Below are positions 1,816-58,009 of a DNA stretch of 64,000 nt, piece after piece. Below the pieces are notes generated by a model. That model saw only the letters and a program-made list of their open reading frames with translations. It made no database searches and was not told the DNA's origin. Within the stretch, counting starts at the first letter, position 1. Every line of letters starts with the position of its first letter. The stretch lies in UHGV virus genome UHGV-0213393. One strand, given 5' to 3'. Position numbers and translations under genes: made by a program. Source of the DNA: a virus.

Positions 1816-2505
1816 AAGGTAAGGGAAAGCTCCGGCACCGTGCAAATACATGCCCGGCAGGTTTAGTGCGTAAAGTGGTTTCAGCGAGAGCATTTTACGG
1901 AGTAAACGACAGTGACTTGAGCCACGGAAGGTCTTTTTAAGGTGTTCATTGATGATGATCTGGCAGTGAGTATGTTAAGTGGGCCAGGCTGCATCGGGTC
2001 ATCATCAGTGAACATCCTCAACGTTAAGGAGGCGCAGAGTTGGGTTTTCCTCTTATTTTGCTGACTCTGAGTCTCCTTAACGTTGCGGTAATGCACCTAT
2101 GCGGATGTGGCCTTGCATTGTGTTTTGAAAGAATGGGGGTAAGGCCGGGGATATCCCCAGGGGGAGGCACCCCCGCTGCAACGAACAGCCATAGACGGCA
2201 GTCGAGTGATGAAAACGTGAAAAGACTTTAAACCTCGTTACGGCTGGCGTGGCAAACGCGACAACCGGGATAGGACGGTGACGGGCGGAGAGAGAGCCGC
2301 TTCAAGATAAAAGCCGACTATGGATTCCTTTCTGCGGGCCTTTGAAAGTGAATCTTGCTCAGGCAGTCGGCTTTTATGTTGATACGTAGCGATAACCGCG
2401 ACAGGCGCGGCGGTAAGTATGGCGGGGTTATTCCTTCCCCGTTGAGGACACCGAGTTGCCAGGTTGACCATACGCCTAAGTGGCAATACCGCGAGTGGGA
2501 TATTT

Positions 2506-2530
2506 GCCCACCTTCGGGTGGGTGTTTTTT
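2506..2530 (+). terminator. rho-independent terminator
   Basis: gcccacc-ttcg-ggtgggtg followed by tttttt; closes an ORF-poor structured region. Confidence 0.7.
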
Positions 2531-2991
2531 CAGTGTTTTCGTCATGGTTAGCGACTTTGCGGCGGTTTAGAAACTGACCATTAAAGTAAATGCAAACGAT
2601 GATCTGATGATGGTAGCGGCCTAAGAAGCCTGACGCCACGGGGTATGAGTCGTCCCCCGTCAAAAAATCGACCGCAGAGTGTCCCCGTCTGTGTATTAGG
2701 GAACGGGGAGGCATAACAGGCAAGGGCGCTGGTGTGATTAACCAGATGAATGAGAAGGGTCAGGTCTTTCTGGTCAGCGCCCTTACCTGTTACGTCCTTC
2801 CCGCGTAACAGCCATTGGTTAATGGCTTTCTGGAATAATGTCTTGTAACGGGTATATCCCGTCATGCTGAAGGCGCTAATCACGCTGGAAGCCAGGGTTA
2901 TGCATCCCCTGTTACCGAATTGCAGCCAGGGCGCGGTGCGCCGAAAAGCATACGGAGGTGGAAGCCCTCGCCGGAGACGTACCCGGCAAGT

Positions 2992-3066
2992 GATGGTGTA
3001 GCTCAGCGGTAGAGCAGTTGGCTGTTAACCAACTGGTCGGTGGTTCGAATCCACCCACCATCGCCA
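2992..3066 (+). tRNA. tRNA-Asn (anticodon GTT)
   Basis: Hand-folded cloverleaf: acceptor gatggtg/caccatc, anticodon loop ctGTTaa, T-arm ggtggttcgaatccacc, 3' CCA encoded. Confidence 0.85.
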
Positions 3067-3071
3067 ATTTA

Positions 3072-3158
3072 GGGGAGTTAGTCCGTAGAGGTAGCGGTGT
3101 AGACTGTAAATCTACTGTCATTGCGACTCGGGTGGTTCGACTCCATCACTCCCCACCA
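3072..3158 (+). tRNA. tRNA-Tyr (anticodon GTA), long variable arm
   Basis: acceptor ggggagt/actcccc, anticodon loop ctGTAaa, extra arm, T-loop ggttcgactcc, CCA encoded; D-arm not fully canonical by eye. Confidence 0.65.
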
Positions 3159-3162
3159 AATT

Positions 3163-3238
3163 GCCGGTTTAGCTCAGTTGGTAGAGCAGTCGCTTTGTAA
3201 GCGAATGGTCAGCGGTTCGATCCCGTTAACCGGCACCA
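3163..3238 (+). tRNA. tRNA-Thr (anticodon TGT)
   Basis: acceptor gccggtt/aaccggc, D-arm gctcagttggtagagc, anticodon loop ttTGTaa, T-loop ggttcgatcc, CCA encoded. Confidence 0.85.
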
Positions 3239-3479
3239 ACACAACAGGTAAGAGCATTTGTAGAGTTCGACTCTCTACCGTGGGCTTTTTCCCGCGATGC
3301 GAGCCATAAATGCTCTTTCCGTTGTGGTGAATGCGCGTTGCTGGCGCGCAAGTCCGCCCTATGGCAACGAGGCGGCGTAGTAAATATCGATGCCTCAGTC
3401 ATCAAGCGCACTGACCGGCCTTATGGGCTATGAAAAAAAGAGGCGCAGTCGGAGATCAGTACCGACCACCACAATCACT

Positions 3480-3566
3480 GGAGAGTAGGGAGCATGGTGC
3501 TCAAGCGGTCTTGAAAACCGTCCCGTCGCGCAAGCGATGATGGTTCGATTCCATTACTCTCCGCCA
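3480..3566 (+). tRNA. tRNA-Ser (anticodon TGA), long variable arm
   Basis: acceptor ggagagt/actctcc, anticodon loop ctTGAaa, long extra arm, T-loop ggttcgattcc, CCA encoded. Confidence 0.65.
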
Positions 3567-3995
3567 TCGCAACGTTAAGAGTATTTGGCTAATTAAGCGA
3601 ATGCCGGAAGCAGAACCGGATCACCAAATGCGTACAGGCGTCATCGCCGCCCAGTCAGCCAAATGCTCTTACCATTGCGGTGAATGCGGCTAAGCGCACG
3701 CGGAACAGTTAAAACAGTAAAGGTGGTCTTTTTACTGGCGTAACGAGAATCCATAAGTGATCCGGCGTTAATTGTTAACTGGTTAACGTCACCGGGAGGC
3801 ACCCGGCACCGCAACCTAACAGCAATGGCGTTTTGTCTTAAAAGGTGGCTGCAAGTGATGGATTTTTGGGCGTTTGCCGATAAAAACCCGGAGTGGACAT
3901 TATTGTTTCTGCTGGTGGTTGCATACGGGGTAGAGCAAGCGGCAAAAGCCTTACGCGGTTCTGGCAAAAAGCGTAAGCGTAATTAACAGTAATCT

Positions 3996-27958: not shown

Positions 27959-28126
27959 ATGACCGTTCGCTACCTCAACTTTCAAATCCAGAACATCACT
28001 GGCGGTTGCTATGACTGGTTTGTCACTCTCGGAAAAGAAGTGTTCACCGGGAAGCTGGATGAAGTGAAAGCTAAAGCAATGGCCTACGCCTGCAAGCAAG
28101 CCCAAAAGAAGAAAAGAAAAGCATAA
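27959..28126 (+). CDS. possible small basic protein (55 aa), absent from ORF track
   Basis: Hand translation MTVRYLNFQIQNITGGCYDWF...KQAQKKKRKA; G-rich SD-like sequence upstream; terminator downstream. Confidence 0.3.
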   Translation: MTVRYLNFQIQNITGGCYDWFVTLGKEVFTGKLDEVKAKAMAYACKQAQKKKRKA

Positions 28127-28232
28127 GAAAACACACAGTTGCGCCCTGGCATTATCGTGGGGTATATTTCTACGGCACCTTAGAAAAACGGGTGCCGGGA
28201 TTGGAACCCCGGATAATGTCAAAGGCGACACA

Positions 28233-28255
28233 GACGCCGAACGCGTCTTTTTTTG
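28233..28255 (+). terminator. rho-independent terminator
   Basis: gacgc-cgaac-gcgtc followed by ttttttt. Confidence 0.7.
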
Positions 28256-28439
28256 TGTCATGCCATCGCACAGCCATACTTAGCGTTTAGCTCAGAGATC
28301 AATGGTAGTGCTGGCTGGGCTGCCGAAAGGCAGGCCGGTTCCCTTTGACGCCGGTAGTTCCAACCCAGTCAGTGCTACCGCCATTGAGATTGGAACCTCA
28401 CGCGGTAGCTCCTTAACTTAGTCAAAGGAGGCTGCCAAT

Positions 28440-28655
28440 ATGGCTACTATCCCTACCCCAACTCATTCTGAATTTATCTGGCGTTTCTATTCCTGCCAAA
28501 AACACCTCTATATCTGCGTAATGGCTGCTACCGAAGCAGAGGCGCGCTCATACCTTCCCGAAGAACCCTGCATTTTTGCTGCTCGCTTCACTCTTGATGC
28601 GATGGAGATCCTCAATTACTGGAATCTGCCAATGAACTGCGTGGAGGTGCACTGA
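28440..28655 (+). CDS. small protein overlapping the antirepressor start (icd-like position)
   Basis: 71-aa ORF whose stop overlaps the next ATG; arrangement recalls P1 icd-ant. Confidence 0.4.
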   Translation: MATIPTPTHSEFIWRFYSCQKHLYICVMAATEAEARSYLPEEPCIFAARFTLDAMEILNYWNLPMNCVEVH

Positions 28656-29596
28656 TGAATCTGTCCATCTCTCAAAAAGCGACAATGACCAGTATTGAGA
28701 TCGCGGAACTGGTAGGTAAGCGTCATGATAATGTGAAGCGTACCATTGAAGTATTAACTAAAGGTGGTGTCATTCAATTTCCTCAAATTGAGGAAATTGA
28801 AAATAAACAATCAGTTGGCCCTCGTCGATTTTCCAAGGCTTACATCTTTGAAGGCGAACAAGGCAAGCGCGATAGCATCATTGTCGTCGCGCAGCTCTCT
28901 CCCGAATTCACCGCCCGGCTGGTGGACCGCTGGCGCGAACTGGAGAATGCCAGGGGACCGTTAAAATCAAAAGCCGAAATCTTGGCCGAAATGGCGCAAA
29001 TGCATCTTGAGCATGAACGCCGGATCAACGCCGTTAATGCCCAGGTAGCCGAAGTATCGGCACAAGTGTCCAAAGTCGCTGAAACCGTCGAGCAAATAAA
29101 GAAAGGCAATATTCCGGAAGGCTACATTAGCTACCGCCAGTTAGCGGCAAAATGCGGCCTGACTGAAGCCAAATGCCGTAACCTGGTCAATGCGTATCGG
29201 ATTCCCACCGATACACATGAGTTTTTAACTCCCGATGGTTTGCTCGCGAGACGCTCCATTGTGGCCCTGGCCCCCTTCCGGAAAGCCTTTAAGCAGGTTA
29301 TGTCGGAGGCAGAACCACGTAACAAACGCTGGTATCATCCCAGGATGGGGCTATTTCAGGCCATTCACCATCCTGTGCCTGAAAGTCCAAAGGCAAACCT
29401 GTCGTTGCATACCGCCAGAGAGAAGATTAAAACAGGGTATGCAACCGTATGCCGTCGAGCATCCTGGCCTGAAAGTGTCTGGGTATGGCCCGAAAGAGGC
29501 TCACGGAAAAACTGGCGCACCATTCGCGACGGCAAAATCTGTGCGATTGATTTACAGCCAGAAGATGTAGCAGCGACCGACTGGATTGTTAGTTAA
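28655..29596 (+). CDS. Rha-family phage regulatory protein / antirepressor-like
   Basis: N-terminal TSIEIAELVGKRHDNVKRTIEVL matches the Rha/antirepressor N-terminal signature. Confidence 0.65.
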   Translation: MNLSISQKATMTSIEIAELVGKRHDNVKRTIEVLTKGGVIQFPQIEEIENKQSVGPRRFSKAYIFEGEQGKRDSIIVVAQLSPEFTARLVDRWRELENARGPLKSKAEILAEMAQMHLEHERRINAVNAQVAEVSAQVSKVAETVEQIKKGNIPEGYISYRQLAAKCGLTEAKCRNLVNAYRIPTDTHEFLTPDGLLARRSIVALAPFRKAFKQVMSEAEPRNKRWYHPRMGLFQAIHHPVPESPKANLSLHTAREKIKTGYATVCRRASWPESVWVWPERGSRKNWRTIRDGKICAIDLQPEDVAATDWIVS

Positions 29597-29634
29597 TAGA
29601 TTTGCCCCGGTCATGCCGGGGCTTTAACTACTAA

Positions 29635-29949
29635 GTGACCGGACACAGCAAAATGTATGCCACGAAAAAAATTGATTTCACTTATTCTTCCGCCACAATT
29701 GAGCGGCGCTTCACCCTCATTAGAGAGTTGGAACTGTCAAAAGTCTGGTATCAAATTCTACTGGATGAAGAGTTCTCACTGATGATAATGGCTGAAAAAG
29801 AAGCAATGCCGAATGACCGGCATAAAGTCATTGCCAGCCTTGACCTGGTGACAAACAGATACTGGGAGACAGAGGAACTGCGTGAAGCGGGAGTAATTCG
29901 TGACCTGATGGATAATTCCGTTCCCCGTCGTTATCGAGTAATGAGCTAA
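29635..29949 (+). CDS. hypothetical protein
   Basis: 104-aa ORF (GTG start in track; alternative ATG at 29652). Confidence 0.4.
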   Translation: MTGHSKMYATKKIDFTYSSATIERRFTLIRELELSKVWYQILLDEEFSLMIMAEKEAMPNDRHKVIASLDLVTNRYWETEELREAGVIRDLMDNSVPRRYRVMS

Positions 29950-30094
29950 AACTCACCTACACACCGTCAGGCCCAACGCTAATAAATGAAACACCCCGCT
30001 CTTAGTGTTTCAGGGAGCCAGCTCATTTTTAGCTTGGAAGCAACTTGATTATGAGCTAAGCCTGACATACACTTCAGCGAGAAAATGATCAAGT

Positions 30095-30135
30095 TAAAGA
30101 CACAAAAGCTCTGTTAAAACAGAGCTTTTGTGTCT
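30095..30135. other. perfect 17-bp stem-loop at left edge of AT-rich island
   Basis: aagacacaaaagctctg-ttaaaa-cagagcttttgtgtctt. Confidence 0.5.
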
Positions 30136-30275
30136 TTAAAACATAGATATCATGCCATATATAGTGCCAAAGTTAGTTTTAGACACTATATATATTACAA
30201 AAGGTAAAAACCGCTTCTACTTTTAACATACACAGAAAAAAAGAAAGCGGTTATAGATAAGGGAAAGGAGGGGTT

Positions 30276-39375: not shown

Positions 39376-40356
39376 ATGTCCCAGGAGCTACAGCAATACT
39401 TTCTACAGTCCGTTACCATCAACGGAAACAAAGTGCCCAGGGAGTGGATATTCACTGCCGTATATGTGGAAAAGGCAAACCTGCGTGCACCATTGCTGAA
39501 ACTGGAAATTCACGATATTACCGGCACCATAATTGATGACTGGAAAACAAAATACGGCGCAGCACTGGTTGCAGAGATGGGTGATCCACAAGGCAATTCA
39601 GGCACGTTTAAAACAACTTTTTTCGTAACATCTGCGGTGCTGGCTGGTGATGTCATTACGGTCATTGCAGTCAGTGAAGACGTTCGGATATTTAAGATCC
39701 CCGCTCTACGGGCTAACCTGCATACAAACAAAACGCCTGATACCATTTTCAAGACGTATACCGGTACACTGAAAGTTTCCTCCAGCGCATTGAAACGAAG
39801 CTGTACGTACCATCTTTCCGCCGGGGAAAAACCCTCCAAAATGCTATCTGAAATGGCCCGCGACAAAGGCGCTTTATGCTGGGCCTGCCGTGGTCAGTTT
39901 AACTTTTATACATTAGCTGACCTTATGAAAGCTAAACCATCATTCACCTATGAAGGGAACAACCCCAGGGCGGAATACACGATTTCAAAAATGAGGCTTA
40001 TACAGCAAGAGTATGCCGTTACGGCAAATACTCAGTATCGATTTACCGGCTATTCAATGACTGAAGGCTATGTCGAATATGGCGATAGCTCACTTCCAAT
40101 ACGCTATATATCCGATCCGGATATGGAAACTCTGCGCAATATGCAATTGTCGCTCGTACCCAAAATGGATATTGAGGTCGCGGGTAATCCCGACATCACG
40201 CCGGGAATGGTTATTGAGATCCTCGTGTATCGTTACGACCAGGAAAATAAGCTGGACGAATCGTTGCCTCGTAAGCTGTTGGTGAAAAACGTAGCCCATT
40301 TTGAGGACCGGATCGGCTATACAACACGAATGATATTAGGAGTACCCAACCAGTGA
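39376..40356 (+). CDS. hypothetical protein (possible virion component)
   Basis: 326-aa ORF upstream of spike-like gene. Confidence 0.45.
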   Translation: MSQELQQYFLQSVTINGNKVPREWIFTAVYVEKANLRAPLLKLEIHDITGTIIDDWKTKYGAALVAEMGDPQGNSGTFKTTFFVTSAVLAGDVITVIAVSEDVRIFKIPALRANLHTNKTPDTIFKTYTGTLKVSSSALKRSCTYHLSAGEKPSKMLSEMARDKGALCWACRGQFNFYTLADLMKAKPSFTYEGNNPRAEYTISKMRLIQQEYAVTANTQYRFTGYSMTEGYVEYGDSSLPIRYISDPDMETLRNMQLSLVPKMDIEVAGNPDITPGMVIEILVYRYDQENKLDESLPRKLLVKNVAHFEDRIGYTTRMILGVPNQ

Positions 40357-41030
40357 AACGCAGAGCGCAAATCGTAGGGACCAAACACCCTGCCGGACTT
40401 ATGCGAGCGCAGGTCCGCATACTGCCTGACTGGAACGGTGTACCGGATGAAGACCTCCCATGGGCAGAGTATCAAATGCCTATCGGTAACGCCTTTACAC
40501 CTACAGTCAGCGGCGATTTAGTCTGGGTCGAATTTCCTTATCTGGATGCTAAAGGCAGGATAGACACGCGCCGACCTTTAATCGTTGGCGCGGCGCAGGA
40601 TGCCCCAGGAGGCGTACCAAATGTGCCTCCGGAAGCCTCCGGACAAGGAAACGGATGGTCGCCAGAAGAAGTTGATGGTGCTCCTGCCCGCCCCCAGTTT
40701 TCGGCGACTGAAGATTTTGTTATTCACCGAAACAATATCCTTGAGGTCAGAACGGCTGGCGGTGGCTATGAAATAGCAAACACCGCCGCAGGATCAAGGA
40801 TAGGGATGAACGAATCCGGCCAGATTTACATAATCGGCCCGGCGAATATAGTGCTTAATGCTGGAGGTGAGGTTAACGTCAAATCAAGCAGCAAAACCAA
40901 TGTATCCTCAGATGGAGACGTTAATGTAAAAGGCAGCAATGTAACCGTCGCCGCTGATGGTGATATAGCCCTGAAAGCTGGTGGCGCGCTAAAAGCAACA
41001 GCGAGCAATTTCTCCTTTGTGAAGGGATAG
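40353..41030 (+). CDS. putative baseplate spike protein (gpV-like)
   Basis: C-terminal repetitive VNVKSS...DGDVNVKGSNVTVAADGDIALKAGG suggests a beta-helical spike. Confidence 0.45.
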   Translation: MKRRAQIVGTKHPAGLMRAQVRILPDWNGVPDEDLPWAEYQMPIGNAFTPTVSGDLVWVEFPYLDAKGRIDTRRPLIVGAAQDAPGGVPNVPPEASGQGNGWSPEEVDGAPARPQFSATEDFVIHRNNILEVRTAGGGYEIANTAAGSRIGMNESGQIYIIGPANIVLNAGGEVNVKSSSKTNVSSDGDVNVKGSNVTVAADGDIALKAGGALKATASNFSFVKG

Positions 41031-41042
41031 CAAAATGCAAAA

Positions 41043-41079
41043 CTGTGTTAGATAATTGAGTTTTATTTTCTAACATAGT
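41043..41079. promoter_or_regulatory. operator-like inverted pair
   Basis: tgtgttagataatt-N6-tattttctaacatag upstream of rdgC. Confidence 0.55.
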
Positions 41080-41089
41080 TTTGCGAAAC

Positions 41090-41995
41090 ATGAGATTAGT
41101 CGCCTTTAAAAACATATACGTCTATCGCCTTGCCCGCGAAATAAAACTGGACTCAACCACCGTTAGTGATGCCTTAAGCCAATTCACATTCACTCCATGC
41201 GCATCACAAGAAATGGCAAAAGTCGGATGGGTGCCGGTTCTGGCTGACAACCTGATCCATGAATACCACGGTTTTCTACTTCTCCAGCAACAGCGAGAAA
41301 TTAAGCTCCTGCCCTCTCATGTCATTAAGGAGGAAGTGCAGAAAAAAGTGGAAAAGCTCGAAAATGAGCAATCTCGTAAGCTGAAGAAGTCGGAAAAAAA
41401 CACCCTGAAGGATGAAGTTCTCCACTCTTTGTTGCCTCGCGCATTCACTCGCAAATCATTGTCGCGAATCCTTATTGATCGCGACAACTATCTGGTCTTC
41501 GTAGAAGCTTCCAGCGCCAGAAAAGCAGAAGAAATGCTGGCGCTCTTACGTAAATCACTTGGCAGCCTGCCAGTGATTCCATTCACGCCGATAGAACCGC
41601 TCGAAATGACTATGACCGAATGGTTCAAGTCAACATTTCCTCAAGGCTTTAAAGCAGGCGAAGAAGCCATATTGAAATCTCTGTTCGATGACGGCGGCGC
41701 AGTTCGTTGCAAGAAAGTAGACCTACAGTCAGAGGAAATAATGACTCATATTGAAGCCGGAAAAGTTGCAACAACAGTTGCAATCAACTGGCAGGACCGC
41801 GCGACCTTCAGGTTAAACGATGACATGAGCATCAAAGCACTGACGTTTTGCGATGATCTCTATGACCAGAACGATGACATCGACCGTGAAGATGTTGCCC
41901 AGCGATTTGATGCTGACTTCATTCTGTTCACAAGCGAATTATCCGCGATGTTTAGCTCGCTGGTGGAGGCCATTGGCGGTGAAGCAGAGCATTAA
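41090..41995 (+). CDS. rdgC: RdgC recombination-associated protein homologue
   Basis: Collinear with E. coli RdgC as recalled: FKNIYVYRL, EKNTLKDEVLHSLLPRAF, LALLRKSLGSLPV, DIDREDVAQRFDADFIL. Confidence 0.85.
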   Translation: MRLVAFKNIYVYRLAREIKLDSTTVSDALSQFTFTPCASQEMAKVGWVPVLADNLIHEYHGFLLLQQQREIKLLPSHVIKEEVQKKVEKLENEQSRKLKKSEKNTLKDEVLHSLLPRAFTRKSLSRILIDRDNYLVFVEASSARKAEEMLALLRKSLGSLPVIPFTPIEPLEMTMTEWFKSTFPQGFKAGEEAILKSLFDDGGAVRCKKVDLQSEEIMTHIEAGKVATTVAINWQDRATFRLNDDMSIKALTFCDDLYDQNDDIDREDVAQRFDADFILFTSELSAMFSSLVEAIGGEAEH

Positions 41996-42659: not shown

Positions 42660-43569
42660 TATTGGTGCTAAATTTATTTCTTATAGCGACAATCATCGTC
42701 CTGCGGCGGAAGCCACTATCAGCCATATGCGACGTATTCGCTCGGAGGACGAATTTGATCGCCCCGTCTTTAAGTGGGTCGGCGGCAAATTTTCTGCACT
42801 GCCCATTATCTTCGAACACCTGCCCCACGGAAAACGGTTGATAGAACCTTTCGTTGGAGGTGGCGCTGTTTTCACTAATGCCGGATTTAAAAGCAACCTG
42901 CTGAACGATATCAATAATGACCTGATTAACTTCTATCAGACATTGCAGCGTGAAGGGCATTCTCTTATCACACTGGCATATCGTTTTTTTCAGGATTACA
43001 ACTCTGCTGATGCATTTTTGAATGTTCGCAATGCATTCAACAATGGTGCTTATGATTCCCTTCACCATGCAGCGGCGTTCCTGTATCTCAATCGTCATTG
43101 TTTTAATGGCGTCACTCGCTATAACCGTAAAGGAGAGTTCAACGTCGGATATGGAAAGCAGAAATCCCCCCACTTCCCTCTCGCGGAAATGGAGGCGTTC
43201 CTGGCTGACGATATTTCAAAGTATTCGGAATTTGTGTCCGGCGATTTTGCTGGTGTAATTGAGGCTGCAGGGAATGATGATGTGATTTTCTGCGATCCCC
43301 CCTATGAACCATTGCCCGACACTACCGGATTTACAAATTACTCAGGGCATAGCTTTAGGTTTGAAGATCAACAACGGCTGGTGTCACTGCTGGTGGATGC
43401 CCACAGACGCGGAGCGAAAATTGTGATAACAAACAGTGGTGCGCCTAACATTCGCGAACTTTACGTTGGCAATGGCTTCAAGGTGTATCCTATGCCATCC
43501 CGTCGCTCTGTATCCTGTAAAGCATCAACCCGAATGATAGCTAACGACATTATAGCCACGCTCAATTAA
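42652..43569 (+). CDS. dam: DNA adenine methyltransferase (Dam-like)
   Basis: FKWVGGK, EPFVGGGAV and DPPY motifs; GTG start with RBS AGGAGGG overlapping upstream stop. Confidence 0.8.
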   Translation: MADIGAKFISYSDNHRPAAEATISHMRRIRSEDEFDRPVFKWVGGKFSALPIIFEHLPHGKRLIEPFVGGGAVFTNAGFKSNLLNDINNDLINFYQTLQREGHSLITLAYRFFQDYNSADAFLNVRNAFNNGAYDSLHHAAAFLYLNRHCFNGVTRYNRKGEFNVGYGKQKSPHFPLAEMEAFLADDISKYSEFVSGDFAGVIEAAGNDDVIFCDPPYEPLPDTTGFTNYSGHSFRFEDQQRLVSLLVDAHRRGAKIVITNSGAPNIRELYVGNGFKVYPMPSRRSVSCKASTRMIANDIIATLN

Positions 43570-43570
43570 G

Positions 43571-43590
43571 AAAAGCCCCATATGGGGCTT
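43571..43590. terminator. bidirectional terminator
   Basis: aaagcccca-ta-tggggcttt between dam and parG-like gene. Confidence 0.65.
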
Positions 43591-43599
43591 TATAACATC

Positions 43600-43700
43600 A
43601 AATAAACGCCATTACGGTACACTAATAACACCATTCTGGTACTAAAAAGGCATCAAGGTAGTATCAAAATACCACATGGAACCAAAACGGTGTTATTCCG
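43600..43700. repeat. centromere-like repeats downstream of parG-like gene
   Basis: aacaccattctggtactaaaaag and ggaaccaaaacggtgtt recur, with near-identical copies at 44640-44850. Confidence 0.45.
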
Positions 43701-43703
43701 GCG

Positions 43704-43991
43704 TCATTTTGTATCCTCAGACTCTGCAAGCATGAGGATAGCATGGCGGATCATATTCAATTTGCTGCGATTATGCTTTTTGCTTAACGCATCAAGTACC
43801 TGGTACTCGTATTCATTGAAGCCAACACGAATGGATTTAAAATCACGTGGGGCGTCCTTATCGAGCACTTTGTTGTCTTCTGGTTGCTCACCCGGCACCA
43901 AATCAGCCTTACTGGCAAAATCCTCAATTCGGCGTTCAAGATCGGGGTCTTTTACTTCGGGGGCTTTTACCGATTTACGAGGCTTAATCAC
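43704..43991 (-). CDS. ParG-like small partition protein
   Basis: 95-aa ORF directly downstream of and overlapping parA-like gene. Confidence 0.5.
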   Translation of the reverse strand: MIKPRKSVKAPEVKDPDLERRIEDFASKADLVPGEQPEDNKVLDKDAPRDFKSIRVGFNEYEYQVLDALSKKHNRSKLNMIRHAILMLAESEDTK

Positions 43992-44625
43992 TTAATAACT
44001 CCTTAACCAACATCTGGATTTCACCTTTAGCTTTCCCGTTGTCCATCTCAACAACGCCCTTCCCTTCAGCCATGCAATCGCGGTAAACCTTACGATCACG
44101 AATGATGGTTTTCAGCAACTTCAGTTGCGGATATTCAGCCAGGTACTCTTTGGCCTCATTGGTTTCATTCACAACCGGATTGGATGGGGCCATTGTTAAG
44201 ACTGCGAACGCCTTAATGCTAGGATTAGGCATCAGGTCCAAAGCCTCTTCAAACACTTCAACAAAGTGTGCCAGCGTGTCTAAATCTGGTTGAGATGGTC
44301 TAAATGGGACCAACACAATATCTGCAGCGGTTATGCCTGTACGCATCTCTTTGCTATCGCGCCCGGCTGTATCAACAACTACAAATTCATAACGCTTATC
44401 CAGATCGAGAAGTGTTTCTCGAATATTACCAAACTTCTGGACACAATGAATTACAGGAGAAACCTCTGCCGTGTTACGGTCAGCTGCCCAGCGGGCAGCT
44501 GTTCCTTGCTTGTCTGCATCTAGTAACACTACATCCTTATTTTCGCGGGCAAGCTCCGCACAGATGTTTACGCTTGTGGTTGATTTTCCACAGCCACCTT
44601 TTTGGCTGACTACCAATATAATCAT
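43984..44625 (-). CDS. parA: ParA/ParF-family partition ATPase
   Basis: Deviant Walker A VVSQKGGCGKST and overall ParA-like architecture. Confidence 0.85.
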   Translation of the reverse strand: MIILVVSQKGGCGKSTTSVNICAELARENKDVVLLDADKQGTAARWAADRNTAEVSPVIHCVQKFGNIRETLLDLDKRYEFVVVDTAGRDSKEMRTGITAADIVLVPFRPSQPDLDTLAHFVEVFEEALDLMPNPSIKAFAVLTMAPSNPVVNETNEAKEYLAEYPQLKLLKTIIRDRKVYRDCMAEGKGVVEMDNGKAKGEIQMLVKELLSD

Positions 44626-44639
44626 ATCCGTTCCTCGGT

Positions 44640-44850
44640 GTTATTTTGGTATCAAACTGGTTCCAAACAGAAGCCTTATTGATGCGGTTTTGGCTCTATA
44701 GTGGAGTCACTATGCTTTGCAAAAGTATAACACTAAACACTCTAAATTTACCCTCTGTTGCATCCTGTTTAACACGAAATCAGCCTCAAAGTGGAACCAG
44801 ACACAAAACAGCACCATAACAACACCGTTTTGGTACTAAAAGAACACTAA
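44640..44850. repeat. centromere-like repeats upstream of parA
   Basis: ttttggtatcaaactggttccaaac, gtggaaccagac, aacaccgttttggtactaaaag. Confidence 0.45.
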
Positions 44851-44869
44851 ATTAGAACCATAACAGTAT

Positions 44870-44892
44870 AAAAAAGGCTGCAAATTGCAGCC
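44870..44892 (-). terminator. rho-independent terminator for parMR operon
   Basis: ggctgcaa-a-ttgcagcc with A-run upstream on plus strand. Confidence 0.6.
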
Positions 44893-44910
44893 TTTGAAGA
44901 TGTAGATTTG

Positions 44911-45276
44911 TTAATCAGGGAGTGAGTTTGCCAAATTCTGTGCAGAGCGGCTTTTCGAAACGCCAGGTTTTTTAACATCCGCTGAGGCTGAGGGGTTTCC
45001 TTCAGGGTTTTCCCGAACTTCAGGCGAAATTTCAAGAAATGAAACCAGCATTTTTCTGATCACTTCAGGGCTATTATCACCGGATAAAAGCGATGCCAAC
45101 ATGGGAGGTAATCTGCTATCAACCTCGCCAAGAGCGATACCTGCAAGCATCGCTGTGCGCGCCATATCATTGCGATCTCTTAATGGATGGCCCTCAAGTT
45201 TTGCATCAGCATATTGCTCACTGGCGTTAAGACCAGGACGAAGATAAAACAATACTTTTCGACGTTCCTGAGACAT
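44911..45276 (-). CDS. parR: ParR centromere-binding protein
   Basis: Directly downstream of parM; RNDMARTAMLAGIAL parallels R1 ParR. Confidence 0.75.
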   Translation of the reverse strand: MSQERRKVLFYLRPGLNASEQYADAKLEGHPLRDRNDMARTAMLAGIALGEVDSRLPPMLASLLSGDNSPEVIRKMLVSFLEISPEVRENPEGNPSASADVKKPGVSKSRSAQNLANSLPD

Positions 45277-45286
45277 GGCAACCTCA

Positions 45287-46246
45287 TCAACCGATAGATT
45301 TTAGACCATAGACAAGAGCAAGTTGTGGATCATCAGCAACGAAAAACCTATCGTCACGAATGTTTACCTGCTCACGGATAGCATCAGCAACAAGCGGCGC
45401 GCCGCCACCAATGACCATAACATGCGTGTATCCTTTGAAATCACTGATCACATCCAGTACGCGTGTACGGAGTCGTTCTATGCTTGACGAAATGGCTTTC
45501 TTAACATCATCAATAGCAGACGGATCGTTAATATTGTCGGTCAAATAATCCTCATCATCACGATTAATGATTAATTGATCGACATTATAATTAGAGGTTT
45601 CGGTATTCGCTTTTGCAAGTGCCTGTCTGACCTCTTTAGTTACCAGCGAAACGCCGAGATTAGAATCGCCAAATACGCGAGAAACGGCGGTCATTTGCCC
45701 GGCGACCATCGACACATCCAGAGTAGTCCCACCAAGATCAACAATAAGCACAGAATGCGCTGGCACAAGGCTGTCGCACAGACCGATCCCTGCGGGTATT
45801 GACTCCGGGCGCACAGTCACTTTTTTGATAGTAAAAACCTGACCTTTGTTAAGGGTGACTGGTCGCATCAGGCTGGCCTTTTTCCGCTCAATATTTTTCA
45901 TGTTGTATTGTGCGTCGTCGTCATAAAACTCTGCCAGTGGCAACGTGACAACTATTTCCACTTCTTGAGGCTCAATGCCACTTGTAAGCAGGGCATGATG
46001 AACAGCAAGCACATTAAGCGGGCTGTATTGCCATTCAACGTTATTCGTCGGCAGCACATCCGGCGAGATCAAGTCATATGAATATTTTTCGTCATCAATG
46101 ATGTAGTTAAACGGCTTTCCTGCGCCAAATGTGGCGGACCATCCACGTTTAAAACTGTTCGGACAGATATGGGTTCGAGTTTCCCCGTCTTGTTCCCACA
46201 GCATTTTGATATTGGTAGAACCATCGTCGATAAAAATGCGCATCAT
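45287..46246 (-). CDS. parM: ParM/StbA actin-like partition ATPase
   Basis: MMRIFIDDGSTNIK, HHALLTSG, IVDLGGTTLDVS, GYTHVMVIGGGA closely parallel R1 ParM as recalled; RBS GGAG. Confidence 0.9.
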   Translation of the reverse strand: MMRIFIDDGSTNIKMLWEQDGETRTHICPNSFKRGWSATFGAGKPFNYIIDDEKYSYDLISPDVLPTNNVEWQYSPLNVLAVHHALLTSGIEPQEVEIVVTLPLAEFYDDDAQYNMKNIERKKASLMRPVTLNKGQVFTIKKVTVRPESIPAGIGLCDSLVPAHSVLIVDLGGTTLDVSMVAGQMTAVSRVFGDSNLGVSLVTKEVRQALAKANTETSNYNVDQLIINRDDEDYLTDNINDPSAIDDVKKAISSSIERLRTRVLDVISDFKGYTHVMVIGGGAPLVADAIREQVNIRDDRFFVADDPQLALVYGLKSIG

Positions 46247-46339
46247 ATTGCTCCACTTCTGAGACACATTTGAGAAAGAATTGAATTTTATATGAGAAAA
46301 CAAAATAAGACCAGAAGTTAGATAGCGTAAAAAGCATCA

Positions 46340-46435
46340 AACTAGAGACGCAATAGAGACACAAAAGAGACTTAGATGATACATGATGTACCCACGATAC
46401 CCGTTTGAGACAAATCAGAGACAAATGTGAGAAGT
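46340..46435. repeat. parC-like iterated AGAGAC repeats upstream of parM
   Basis: At least five AGAGAC(A) copies. Confidence 0.5.
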
Positions 46436-46495
46436 AAGAAATCTGAAGAGTGAAAATCACAAAGTGGAGAAGATTTAAGAAAAAGGAGGTGTTAG

Positions 46496-46780
46496 ATGAG
46501 TGCAATAGCGACCAGTGACACAGTTTGTTCTGGTCATGGAGGATTCCCTCCGCGACCTGTAGCAGAAACAGTTTCCTGGTTTACCGTAAATGGAAAGCCA
46601 GTGGTTGTAGATGGGGGAGCGTTCCCAAGCCATACAGACGGAAATAGCGCGCACCCCGGATCAGCCGTATCGACGCGCTCATGGTTTGCAATAGGCGGGA
46701 AAGGAGTTGTTTGTGTGGGAGATCCCCTTTCTTGTGGCTCAGTCATCGCCAATGGTGAAGCAATTTTTCAGGTGTCATAA
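46496..46780 (+). CDS. PAAR-domain protein
   Basis: TVNGKPVVVDG and GGKGVVCVGDPLSCGSVIA match PAAR repeat pattern; RBS AGGAGG. Confidence 0.6.
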   Translation: MSAIATSDTVCSGHGGFPPRPVAETVSWFTVNGKPVVVDGGAFPSHTDGNSAHPGSAVSTRSWFAIGGKGVVCVGDPLSCGSVIANGEAIFQVS

Positions 46781-56711: not shown

Positions 56712-56942
56712 ATGTTGACTATAGTCGAAATGGCTTACAACTAATGTTGACTGTACTCGATACCGATCACAAAACATTGACTACACACGACAAGAAATGA
56801 GGAAAGATTGACTATAAGCGACAAATACTCAATGAAATAGCTGGTTTATCCATTGATCATGTGAAAAAGTTAATAACTAAATCCGCCAGCATCAATGTTT
56901 GTCGCGTATAGTCAACGCTTGGAATCGCACACAGTCAATGTT
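56712..56942. repeat. iteron array downstream of repA (incA-like)
   Basis: About six 19-bp repeats related to ATCGCACATAGTCAACATT in both orientations. Confidence 0.7.
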
Positions 56943-57825
56943 ATGGATTTCGTTTATGGATCTGGAAACCTATTTTCCGACCATTCTTTATCTCTGAAAA
57001 TTTAAGATATTCAACAGCTTCCAAGTCTTTCATGGCTTTACGAATCACACTGTTCTGAACGCTAACCGATGATTTGAGGTTCAATCTGGCGCGAAGGCGC
57101 TCAATACTCACTGGCGCAGGGTTTGAAGGTAACGCTTCGAAAAACGTATAAAGCACCTTGGCTGTCTCTTTCCTGCCAAGTTTATCGAGCATTTTGAGCT
57201 TCAATATTCGCTTATAGTCAACGTAATACAACTCAGACAACTGCTTCTGCGGTTGGATTCTTATAATGTCATTTTCAGTATCAAGTTCACTAAATGCCAA
57301 TAAATTCATCTGGATATAACGAACATGTTCTTTGCTGGTGGGCAAGTTGAACTTCAGCAACGTCTGCTGAATACGCGTTAGAGAGTCGCCAATGCTCTTG
57401 CGAAAAGCCTTGGACAGCCGCTTCCTTGGATAACCGCAACGATCCACAAATTCAGAGAATGTCAGGGTGATCACACCATCATTATCTGGTTTATAGTCAA
57501 ACAATGCAGATGTAATGCCTATCCACACCTTAAAATCAGTATCCATATCCAGCCGTGGCCCATGAATCTCAATACCCTGATACCCTTCCTGCTCTACAAT
57601 CTTCAGGCTGGACAGTTCTTCTGTCGCATCAGTGGAGTTAGTTAAACCGGCGTTCTTGCGACGTAAAGCAACACTGGTAGATTTCAATGTGGGAACAAAC
57701 ACCCCAAGCCGCAACAAAGCTATCGGCTGAATAGTGCTATTATTGTTAGGCTTTAAGCTGTGGATTTCTCCGGTATTCCCTGATATTTCCTCAACGTTCA
57801 GAAAGCCTTTTTTGTCATCTACCAT
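56941..57825 (-). CDS. repA: RepA iteron-binding replication initiator (P1 RepA family)
   Basis: IQPIALLRLGVFVP and GPRLDMDTDFKVWIGI match P1 RepA as recalled; flanked by iterons on both sides. Confidence 0.9.
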   Translation of the reverse strand: MVDDKKGFLNVEEISGNTGEIHSLKPNNNSTIQPIALLRLGVFVPTLKSTSVALRRKNAGLTNSTDATEELSSLKIVEQEGYQGIEIHGPRLDMDTDFKVWIGITSALFDYKPDNDGVITLTFSEFVDRCGYPRKRLSKAFRKSIGDSLTRIQQTLLKFNLPTSKEHVRYIQMNLLAFSELDTENDIIRIQPQKQLSELYYVDYKRILKLKMLDKLGRKETAKVLYTFFEALPSNPAPVSIERLRARLNLKSSVSVQNSVIRKAMKDLEAVEYLKFSEIKNGRKIGFQIHKRNP

Positions 57826-57904: not shown

Positions 57905-58009
57905 TATCGCATACAGTCAATGTTTATATCGCATATAGTCAACATTAAATCGCGTACAGTCAACATTAAATCGCACATAGTCAACATTAAATCGCACATA
58001 GTCAATGTT
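57905..58009. repeat. five direct 19-bp iterons upstream of repA (origin/incC-like)
   Basis: atcgcatacagtcaatgtt, atcgcatatagtcaacatt, atcgcgtacagtcaacatt, atcgcacatagtcaacatt, atcgcacatagtcaatgtt at 21-23 bp spacing. Confidence 0.85.

Follow-up and report, generated by a model that had tools for sequence, protein, structure and literature searches.

A type Ib and a type II partition locus in tandem in a D6-like phage-plasmid of Escherichia coli

The virus genome UHGV-0213393 was analysed as one stretch of 64,000 nucleotides (hereafter the window), which belongs to a D6-like phage-plasmid of Escherichia coli, an element related to phage P1 but not P1 itself. With a probability of roughly 0.8, we interpret its minus strand between positions 43572 and 46455 as a pair of plasmid-prophage maintenance modules, in which two mechanistically different partition (par) loci stand in tandem, each served by a separate centromere and a separate terminator. 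The combination of a type Ib locus, consisting of ParA and a small partner of 95 amino acids (aa), with a type II ParM/ParR locus is real and probably functional. An earlier reading made from the DNA letters alone (the sequence-only reading) had placed two different partition systems directly next to each other here, and both are indeed present. In the direction of transcription, an array of 11-bp iterons is followed by parM, parR, a terminator, 247 bp of non-coding DNA, parA, the open reading frame (ORF) of the 95-aa protein (orf95), 110 bp of non-coding DNA and a further terminator. Because terminators follow both parR and orf95, the four genes form two separate operons (Table 1). The last hairpin closes the minus-strand parA-orf95 operon and also the plus-strand Dam methylase gene, which converges on it. 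The analysis below shows what the genes are, how their products fold, how repeats and terminators are arranged, and that the loci are conserved and under purifying selection; DNA binding, autoregulation, the mechanics of filaments or gradients, and plasmid stabilisation are inferred from the known families.

The type II locus has the anatomy expected of this class, namely a ParM with both of its domains, a ParR directly downstream and an array of direct repeats upstream of parM. ParM matched the Pfam families StbA_N (E 2.1e-69) and ParM C-terminal domain (E 8.8e-56), aligned to the solved ParM structures 4a62 and 1mwk with E values of about 1e-110, and carries the nucleotide-binding motifs DDGSTNIK, DLGGTTLD and GGGAP in its translation. 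Only 10 nt separate the parM stop codon from parR, whose product matched Pfam family PF10784 (Plasmid_stab_B, E 3.1e-14) and has the 130-aa StbB protein of entry 2jd3 as its best solved relative (E 3.9e-7). The sequence-only reading had pointed out iterated AGAGAC repeats upstream of parM, and the counts bear this out: of 34 WGAGAC matches across the window, six fall inside the 163 bp of 46260-46422, where about 0.09 would be expected, all of them on the plus strand and in runs at 11-bp spacing. Tandem Repeats Finder reported period-11 arrays at 46343-46371 and 46406-46432, and the autocorrelation of the site at lag 11 reached z = 5.0. Counting degenerate copies (TGAGAA, TGATAC), the site holds approximately 10-12 parC-like iterons of 11 bp with the plus-strand core WGAGAC/TGAGAA, arranged in three clusters at roughly 46260-46303, 46344-46382 and 46406-46438, each of which is shifted by 7 bp from the previous one. 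Iterons of 11 bp with a GAGA core were also found in Escherichia phage D6 (MF356679) and in plasmid unnamed5 of E. coli CH468 (NZ_JBRBPZ010000006.1), embedded in diverged surrounding sequence. The ParR of D6 is 59% identical to that of the window by tblastn (63% in the alignment, with a conserved C-terminal tail), yet core and spacing of the iterons are the same in all three elements. By analogy with plasmid R1 and with par1 of plasmid pB171, ParR dimers would bind the GAGAC iterons upstream of parM, repress the parMR operon and cap filaments of ATP-bound ParM, which would push sister plasmids apart. A 94-aa protein with PAAR motifs, the homologue of P1 upfC, is encoded at 46496-46780 on the plus strand, divergent from the parC region, so that a single intergenic region of 250 bp, with the iterons in it, must serve both its promoter and parM.

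Table 1. Features of the two partition loci in window coordinates; the last two rows give coordinates in plasmid unnamed5 of E. coli CH468 (locus L017 of L015-L017).
Feature	Position	Strand	Basis
Bidirectional intrinsic terminator hairpin	43572..43591	both	perfect 10-nt inverted repeat AAAGCCCCAT/ATGGGGCTTT; minus-strand terminator-like site
Type Ib downstream centromere-like site (parC2-like), 110 bp non-coding	43594..43703	-	16-mers, lag-11 autocorrelation
orf95, 95-aa candidate centromere-binding protein, homologue of D6 orf61	43704..43991	-	ribbon-helix-helix fold model, synteny
parA, type Ib, 213 aa	43984..44625	-	Pfam, PDB match ParF
Type Ib upstream site (parC1-like promoter/operator and centromere candidate), 247 bp non-coding	44626..44872	-	lag-11 autocorrelation
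Intrinsic terminator after parR	44873..44895	-	AAAGGCTGCAA-T-TTGCAGCCTTT, then T run
parR (StbB), 121-aa adaptor	44911..45276	-	PF10784
parM (StbA), actin-like segregation ATPase, 318 aa from second ATG	45287..46243	-	Pfam, PDB
parC-like centromere/operator, ~210 bp of 11-bp iterons	46249..46455	-	iteron counts, Tandem Repeats Finder, autocorrelation
CH468 unnamed5, type Ia pair	27972-30148		
CH468 unnamed5, parM-parR	40278-41626		

The second locus has the composition of a type Ib system: an ATPase in the range of about 200-220 aa with a deviant Walker A motif and without a helix-turn-helix (HTH) domain, a small ribbon-helix-helix (RHH) partner downstream, and adjoining repeats. ParA carries the deviant Walker A motif KGGCGKST, lacks an N-terminal HTH domain and matched the Pfam families CbiA, AAA_31 and MipZ. 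Its best match in the PDB is ParF of plasmid TP228 (4dzz, E 1.5e-18), over the full length. The GTG start codon of orf95 lies behind an AAGGAG ribosome-binding site and overlaps the parA stop by 8 nt. The encoded protein begins with the basic peptide MIKPRK, has a helix at residues 16-29 and ends in a modelled RHH domain at about residues 50-93; the basic N terminus (M-x-K-x-R) is kept across the protein family. In the 5' part of orf95 there is also a 15-bp tandem duplication, TCGGGGTCTTTTAC / TCGGGGGCTTTTAC at 43942-43970, which encodes a repeated KAPEVKDP-like stretch in the N-terminal tail.

The identity of the 95-aa protein, annotated as 'hypothetical' on more than 900 contigs, had to be approached through its family. 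The protein itself matched no Pfam family at E <= 0.1 and no NCBIfam model, and neither the single sequence nor a 10-sequence profile matched any PDB sequence, ParG included. An exhaustive profile search gathered a family of 124 clusters with proteins of about 65-100 aa. Among its 63 aligned members, 24 matched the NikA-like and 15 the RHH_1 Pfam models, and the family profile aligned with CopG in register but weakly (E 0.2). The AlphaFold 2 (AF2) model built from this 63-sequence alignment has a mean predicted local distance difference test score (pLDDT) of 89.5, with 92-99 over residues 41-90; it supersedes a model from a 9-sequence alignment, whose pLDDT of 58 made a fold search meaningless. 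Nearly all top Foldseek matches of the model are RHH proteins, namely the CopA antitoxin, CopG, Arc, TacA, ParG (1p94), ORF56 and AmrZ, with root-mean-square deviations of 1.1-1.8 Å over 40-43 residues and probabilities up to 0.99. None of the matches reached E <= 0.001, because the RHH domain is so small. In four of the five distant family members that were checked, the gene lies directly downstream of, and overlaps, a gene for a ParA of 209-216 aa; the fifth stands at a contig end. The model thus gives the 95-aa protein a ribbon-helix-helix fold, and the Pfam matches within the family, the modelled fold and the synteny with ParA together identify it as the predicted cognate RHH centromere-binding partner of the type Ib system. 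The sequence-only reading had called the operon ParG-like. This description is appropriate for fold and role, and the AF2 model, the Foldseek matches and the gene architecture agree with it, whereas by sequence the protein does not belong to the ParG family.

Both flanks of the parA-orf95 operon carry related repeats. The 16-mer AACACCRTTYTGGTAC occurs at 43627-43642 (+), 43679-43694 (-) and 44821-44836 (+), so that the two downstream copies are mutually inverted and the third lies upstream of parA. Three matches in 64 kb compare with 0.15 expected, and none of 100 shuffles reached three. The two plus-strand copies extend to about 22 nt, with two substitutions and one extra A between them. The flanking repeats claimed by the sequence-only reading are therefore real, although its wording 'near-identical' was slightly generous. 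The 16-mers stand out most within larger arrays of boxes phased at 11 bp. Lag 11 was the sole peak of the autocorrelation in both the downstream site (z = 3.0) and the upstream site (z = 5.3; z = 3.9 in the proximal and z = 3.2 in the distal part), and harmonics followed at 22 and 33; the peak was absent from two coding controls. The 6-mers ATAACA (7 vs 0.23 expected) and AACACC (4 vs 0.26 expected) are enriched in the flanks. About ten 11-bp-phased boxes with the plus-strand consensus RRYAYCAWW make up the downstream site, which also contains a 17-nt inverted repeat that is 88% complementary; GGTATCAAA and AGTATCAAA, one from each site, are examples of the 11-mer layout. Upstream, three proximal minus-strand boxes stand 11 bp apart at 44637-44664 (tttGGAACCag, tttGATACCaa and aatAACACCga), just upstream of the parA ribosome-binding site and after a candidate promoter, TTGCAA-N16-TATAGA at 44722-44695, which was read by hand only. 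By analogy with par2 of pB171 and with ParFG of TP228, the 95-aa protein would bind the arrays on both operon flanks, and the upstream array would double as an operator. Its basic N-terminal tail would stimulate nucleoid-bound ParA-ATP, and the type Ib system would thereby place the plasmid at equal distances over the nucleoid. In the spacer between two parC iteron clusters (46383-46405), GTACC and GATACC, about 9 bp apart at 46388-46401, resemble the type Ib boxes. This resemblance may reflect cross-regulation of parMR by the 95-aa protein, or chance; cross-regulation between the two par loci of pB171 has reportedly been described.

Comparison of the two flanks with D6 gave different pictures. 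The upstream site has a mean column identity of 89%, and its boxes and the TATAGA element are retained. The downstream site, with about 56% identity, is not alignable and is the least conserved part of the locus, and the edge of a near-identical patch around the parA cassette (see below) lies close to it. These two observations would suit another explanation, in which 43594-43703 is not a second centromere but a regulatory site or a boundary of cassette exchange, and the upstream array alone acts as centromere. We consider this explanation unlikely, since the 16-mer is common to both sites in direct and inverted orientation, and the downstream site is 11-bp periodic in the window and in D6, where it is built of GGTGCACC, TGGTTCC and GTACC boxes (z = 3.7). 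That the 11-bp architecture has outlived the divergence of the sequence speaks for a function. Two further ParA lineages likewise have related repeats on both sides of the operon, the pB171-type locus of plasmid pLAO55 (L005), where they read TAGTTATGAAATCACA and TACTTATGAAATCACA, and the Kacie_13 plasmid (L007). In pB171 par2, both parC1 and parC2 are said to act as centromeres, as Ringgaard and colleagues reportedly found in 2007. The idea that the 16-mers are recombination scars of a mobile cassette was rejected, because the cassette-free junction of the CH468 plasmid consists of the terminator only and has no copy of the motif.

A known precedent for such a pair of neighbouring systems is pB171, whose double par locus Ebersbach and Gerdes reportedly described in 2001 as par1, a type II parMRC, and par2, a type Ib ParA/ParB with parC1 and parC2. 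For comparison we used the IncF plasmids pLAO55 and pCE10A (L006), which we take to be of the pB171 type from their architecture and protein sizes. Like the window, they combine type II with type Ib, and in pLAO55 the ParA operon is likewise flanked upstream and downstream by related repeats. Their small partner of about 91-95 aa also overlaps the parA stop and carries a CopG/RHH label in the databases. In contrast to the tandem operons on one strand with a terminator between them, the pB171 type has divergent operons that leave a shared central region (parR<-parM | parA->parB). Protein identities to the window are 43% for ParA, 42% for ParM and 33% for ParR, and the partner has no detectable sequence similarity to the 95-aa protein (BLASTP E 0.13; hhalign probability 1%), so that the 95-aa protein was rejected as a homologue of the pB171-type ParB. 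The repeat period differs as well: the parA-parB flanks of pLAO55 (L005 3280-3500 and 4415-4600) gave an autocorrelation period of 7, also 14 and 21 bp, as against 11 bp in the window and in D6. It is also unlikely that the D6 pair is a rearranged pB171 double locus, as the window ParM shares 53.6% of its residues with counterparts on many enterobacterial plasmids and only 42% with that of the pB171 type; a ParM of a Proteus plasmid reached 70.5%. Outside D6-like elements the nearest ParA (67%) is that of the Kacie_13 plasmid, which lies beside a RepB gene, without parM, and has a partner 51% identical to the 95-aa protein.

The type II locus resembles parMRC of R1 in having clusters of 11-bp parC iterons upstream of parM, followed by parR. 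However, the parC of R1 has two sets of five iterons and the window three clusters, and the ParR of the window matches only through the StbB Pfam family and 2jd3. The likeness to TP228 lies in ParF, the best solved match of ParA, and in a small RHH partner with a flexible N-terminal half; the difference is that the 95-aa protein matches neither ParG nor the ParG Pfam family by sequence. P1 parABS has the same biological role in a related phage-plasmid; its parts, adjacent to repA, are an HTH-bearing ParA of roughly 400 aa, a ParB that has an HTH and a ParB/Spo0J domain, and parS. None of these components is in the window, in D6 or in NZ_CP104667.1, a 91.75-kb E. coli plasmid that is 99.8% identical to the window over the 2.9-kb par region. 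Neither a type Ia (P1-type) ParA/ParB nor any partition system besides the two described here is annotated in D6 or NZ_CP104667.1, and in the window the tail tube gene and repA are 580 bp apart, which is too little for a P1-type parABS. The statement of the sequence-only reading that neither locus is of the P1 type is thus correct. Its choice of P1 as the reference was not: the element is D6-like, and the comparison with P1 therefore explains nothing unusual.

Escherichia phage D6 carries the same four genes in the same order as orf58-orf61, annotated as StbA, StbB, 'possible ParA' and a hypothetical protein, and at the same position, between dmt and the upfC/PAAR gene. Its proteins are 100% (ParA), 98% (orf95) and 94% (ParM) identical to those of the window and its cis sites share the 11-bp periodicity, whereas the parC spacers, like the downstream type Ib site, cannot be aligned. 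The annotations of D6 and NZ_CP104667.1 describe a P1-related myovirus genome with a Rep_3-type plasmid replicon, Cre/lox-like resolution and toxin-antitoxin modules. Outside NZ_CP104667.1, matches to the par region are confined to its coding parts; they include D6 and over 100 plasmids, about 90 kb in size, of Escherichia, Salmonella and Shigella. In a set of 5426 complete E. coli genomes the par locus was present in 102 (about 2%), plasmid-borne every time. PLSDB holds a ParA with at least 80% identity in 118 plasmids and such a ParM in 119, with DNA matches in 122, which indicates that the two loci travel together; D6 and about 120 PLSDB plasmids have the same four genes. In the window, a Rep_3-family initiator (56941-57825, -) adjoins a 21-bp iteron array of 4.7 tandem copies of ATCGCATACAGTCAACATTAA (57906-58005), and together they form the plasmid replicon, at a distance of about 11 kb from the par genes. 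In D6, as in many D6-type plasmids, glnS, the gene for glutaminyl-tRNA synthetase, lies next to the par locus, between the Dam methylase gene and orf61 (2069-3730 of the D6 locus L001). Elements of the window type lack it, and their Dam gene stops at 43569, immediately ahead of the shared terminator (43569-43704 compared with D6).

The two modules have had different histories. At the nucleotide level, parA is 99.7% and orf95 95.8% identical to D6; parM reaches 79.9%, and the remainder of the window ranges over 72-96% (about 75-77% in the structural genes). Sliding windows delimited a near-identical patch (96-100%) of about 1 kb at approximately 43700-44650, which takes in parA and most of orf95, within flanking DNA of 55-80% identity. 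Because the synonymous sites of parA are also nearly unchanged (dS 0.014), this pattern suggests recent recombination rather than selection and points to a recent cassette exchange. A plasmid of Escherichia marmotae is 89-100% identical to the window per 100-nt bin, except for 81-92% in the 5' half of parA. Judged from these alignments, the parA-orf95 region is a recombination mosaic, in agreement with the composite history that the sequence-only reading had offered as one possibility. The CH468 plasmid, a more distantly related phage-plasmid of the P1/D6 group, illustrates a further arrangement: its parM-parR, with 76% (ParM) and 47% (ParR) amino-acid identity to the window proteins, adjoins Dam with only the terminator between them and without the type Ib cassette. 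Instead, a 401-aa ParA and a 324-aa ParB-domain protein, a P1-like type Ia pair, lie beside the gene for a RepB-family initiator. Since this relative without type Ib still has type Ia ParAB, two systems seem to be maintained; relatives keep two systems and differ in which Walker-type system they have.

Both loci also bear the marks of selection. The four genes are annotated in most of the listed D6-like records, and their ORFs are intact in D6 and in four of six other relatives inspected. Against D6, parM has a ratio of nonsynonymous to synonymous substitution rates (dN/dS) of 0.013, at a saturated dS of about 2.9, and orf95 has 0.09. Both genes are under purifying selection.

Several points weigh against our interpretation. 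The ParA score with the NCBIfam model ParA_partition (NF041546) is 162.8 bits, below the curated cutoff of 180; the match is full-length with E 7.3e-48, and this close miss touches the label of ParA, not its fold. A scan with the sigma-70 consensus found no promoter in the upstream region of either operon and missed the hand-read candidate before parA. The type Ib boxes are degenerate, and the binding box of the 95-aa protein can be given only roughly, as RNACC/GGTNY. In the searched literature we found neither experimental work on either locus in D6-like elements nor a description of the cis sites. Finally, frameshifts in relatives, which the sequence-only reading had named as grounds for refutation, do occur in two records. 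Plasmid pMUB-MIN14-1 (NZ_CP069647.1) has them in orf95, parA and parM, and pCUVET20-PYO4.3 (NZ_CP115379.1), whose type Ib cassette is more diverged (ParA 93% and partner 78% identical), has a single one at about codon 50 of parM, a gene that the Prokaryotic Genome Annotation Pipeline (PGAP) marks as a pseudogene. Indels in three genes look like assembly error in the case of pMUB-MIN14-1, and the frameshifts in the two records may be assembly error or real decay. They weigh little against function when set beside the strong evidence for it.

The same frameshifts, in three of the four genes of one relative and in parM of the other, could be taken to mean that one locus does the work while the other is redundant baggage of recombination heading for decay. 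The absence of the type Ib cassette from CH468 would agree with this, and SCP1 offers a precedent, for in the laboratory just one of its two partition systems is of consequence (PMC13245405). Nevertheless, we regard such single-locus dependence as rather improbable. Both loci are intact or annotated in most other relatives and co-occur in about 118-119 PLSDB plasmids, the dN/dS values of parM (with its saturated dS) and orf95 are low, and the cis arrays of D6 keep their 11-bp periodicity despite divergence. CH468, too, has a second system anyway, in its type Ia ParAB.

A third possibility is that the loci are non-redundant because one of them, most plausibly ParMRC, serves the phage by moving or positioning replicating or packaging DNA in lytic growth. 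The parMR genes do lie among phage genes at a distance from the replicon, and D6-type and CH468-type elements have them in common but differ in the Walker-type system. Moreover, P88-like phages of about 31-40 kb (P88, 520873, Chuche, Xuanwuvirus P884B11 and others) have a gene for a full-length homologue of ParM, 47% identical to that of the window. However, the locus has the full plasmid-type anatomy of iterons, parM, parR and terminator, its ParM matches the solved ParM structures and the ParM of many enterobacterial plasmids at the values given above, and nothing in the data ties parMR expression to lytic genes. A phage role is accordingly very improbable, and two plasmid maintenance modules in tandem remain our preferred interpretation.

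The pairing of type Ib with type II is itself already known, with pB171 as the paradigm, and the four genes have been annotated in D6 and listed for pYU39_89. For the latter, 'cop, parA, stbB and parM' were listed (PMC6799933), and D6 appears in another list as 'ParA-Ib-type ATPase; RHH domain-containing protein' (PMC8026635). The sequence-only reading had called dual segregation machinery unusual, which does not hold: among the PLSDB plasmids for which a 2026 survey could recognise any partition system, about 19% had more than one, and 971 accessions combined type-I RHH with type II (PMC13245405). What appears to be undescribed is the tandem layout, the unnamed family of RHH partners with its 11-bp phased sites on both sides of the operon, the recent exchange of the parA cassette, and the replacement of type Ib by type Ia in one relative.

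These results leave the accepted view of plasmid partition as it was, and their practical yield is modest. Annotation of the 95-aa 'hypothetical protein' as the RHH centromere-binding partner of D6-type ParA is now possible, and the boundaries of three cis sites are available for cloning and binding assays. D6-like phage-plasmids must be inherited at low copy number, and their upkeep bears on the persistence of the prophage and on its compatibility with other plasmids. With their discordant histories, the modules can serve as a natural test case for the question why a plasmid retains two partition systems. As a tentative and rather doubtful extension, selection in the D6 branch might keep two different segregation machines, with ParMRC fixed, the Walker-type system replaceable (type Ia in CH468-type and type Ib in D6-type elements) and the type Ib cassette now spreading by recombination. 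If this were true, the two systems would be non-redundant and might divide the labour between equal positioning over the nucleoid and pole-directed pushing; alternatively, the division might be between hosts, or the second system might offer an escape from partition incompatibility among co-infecting relatives.

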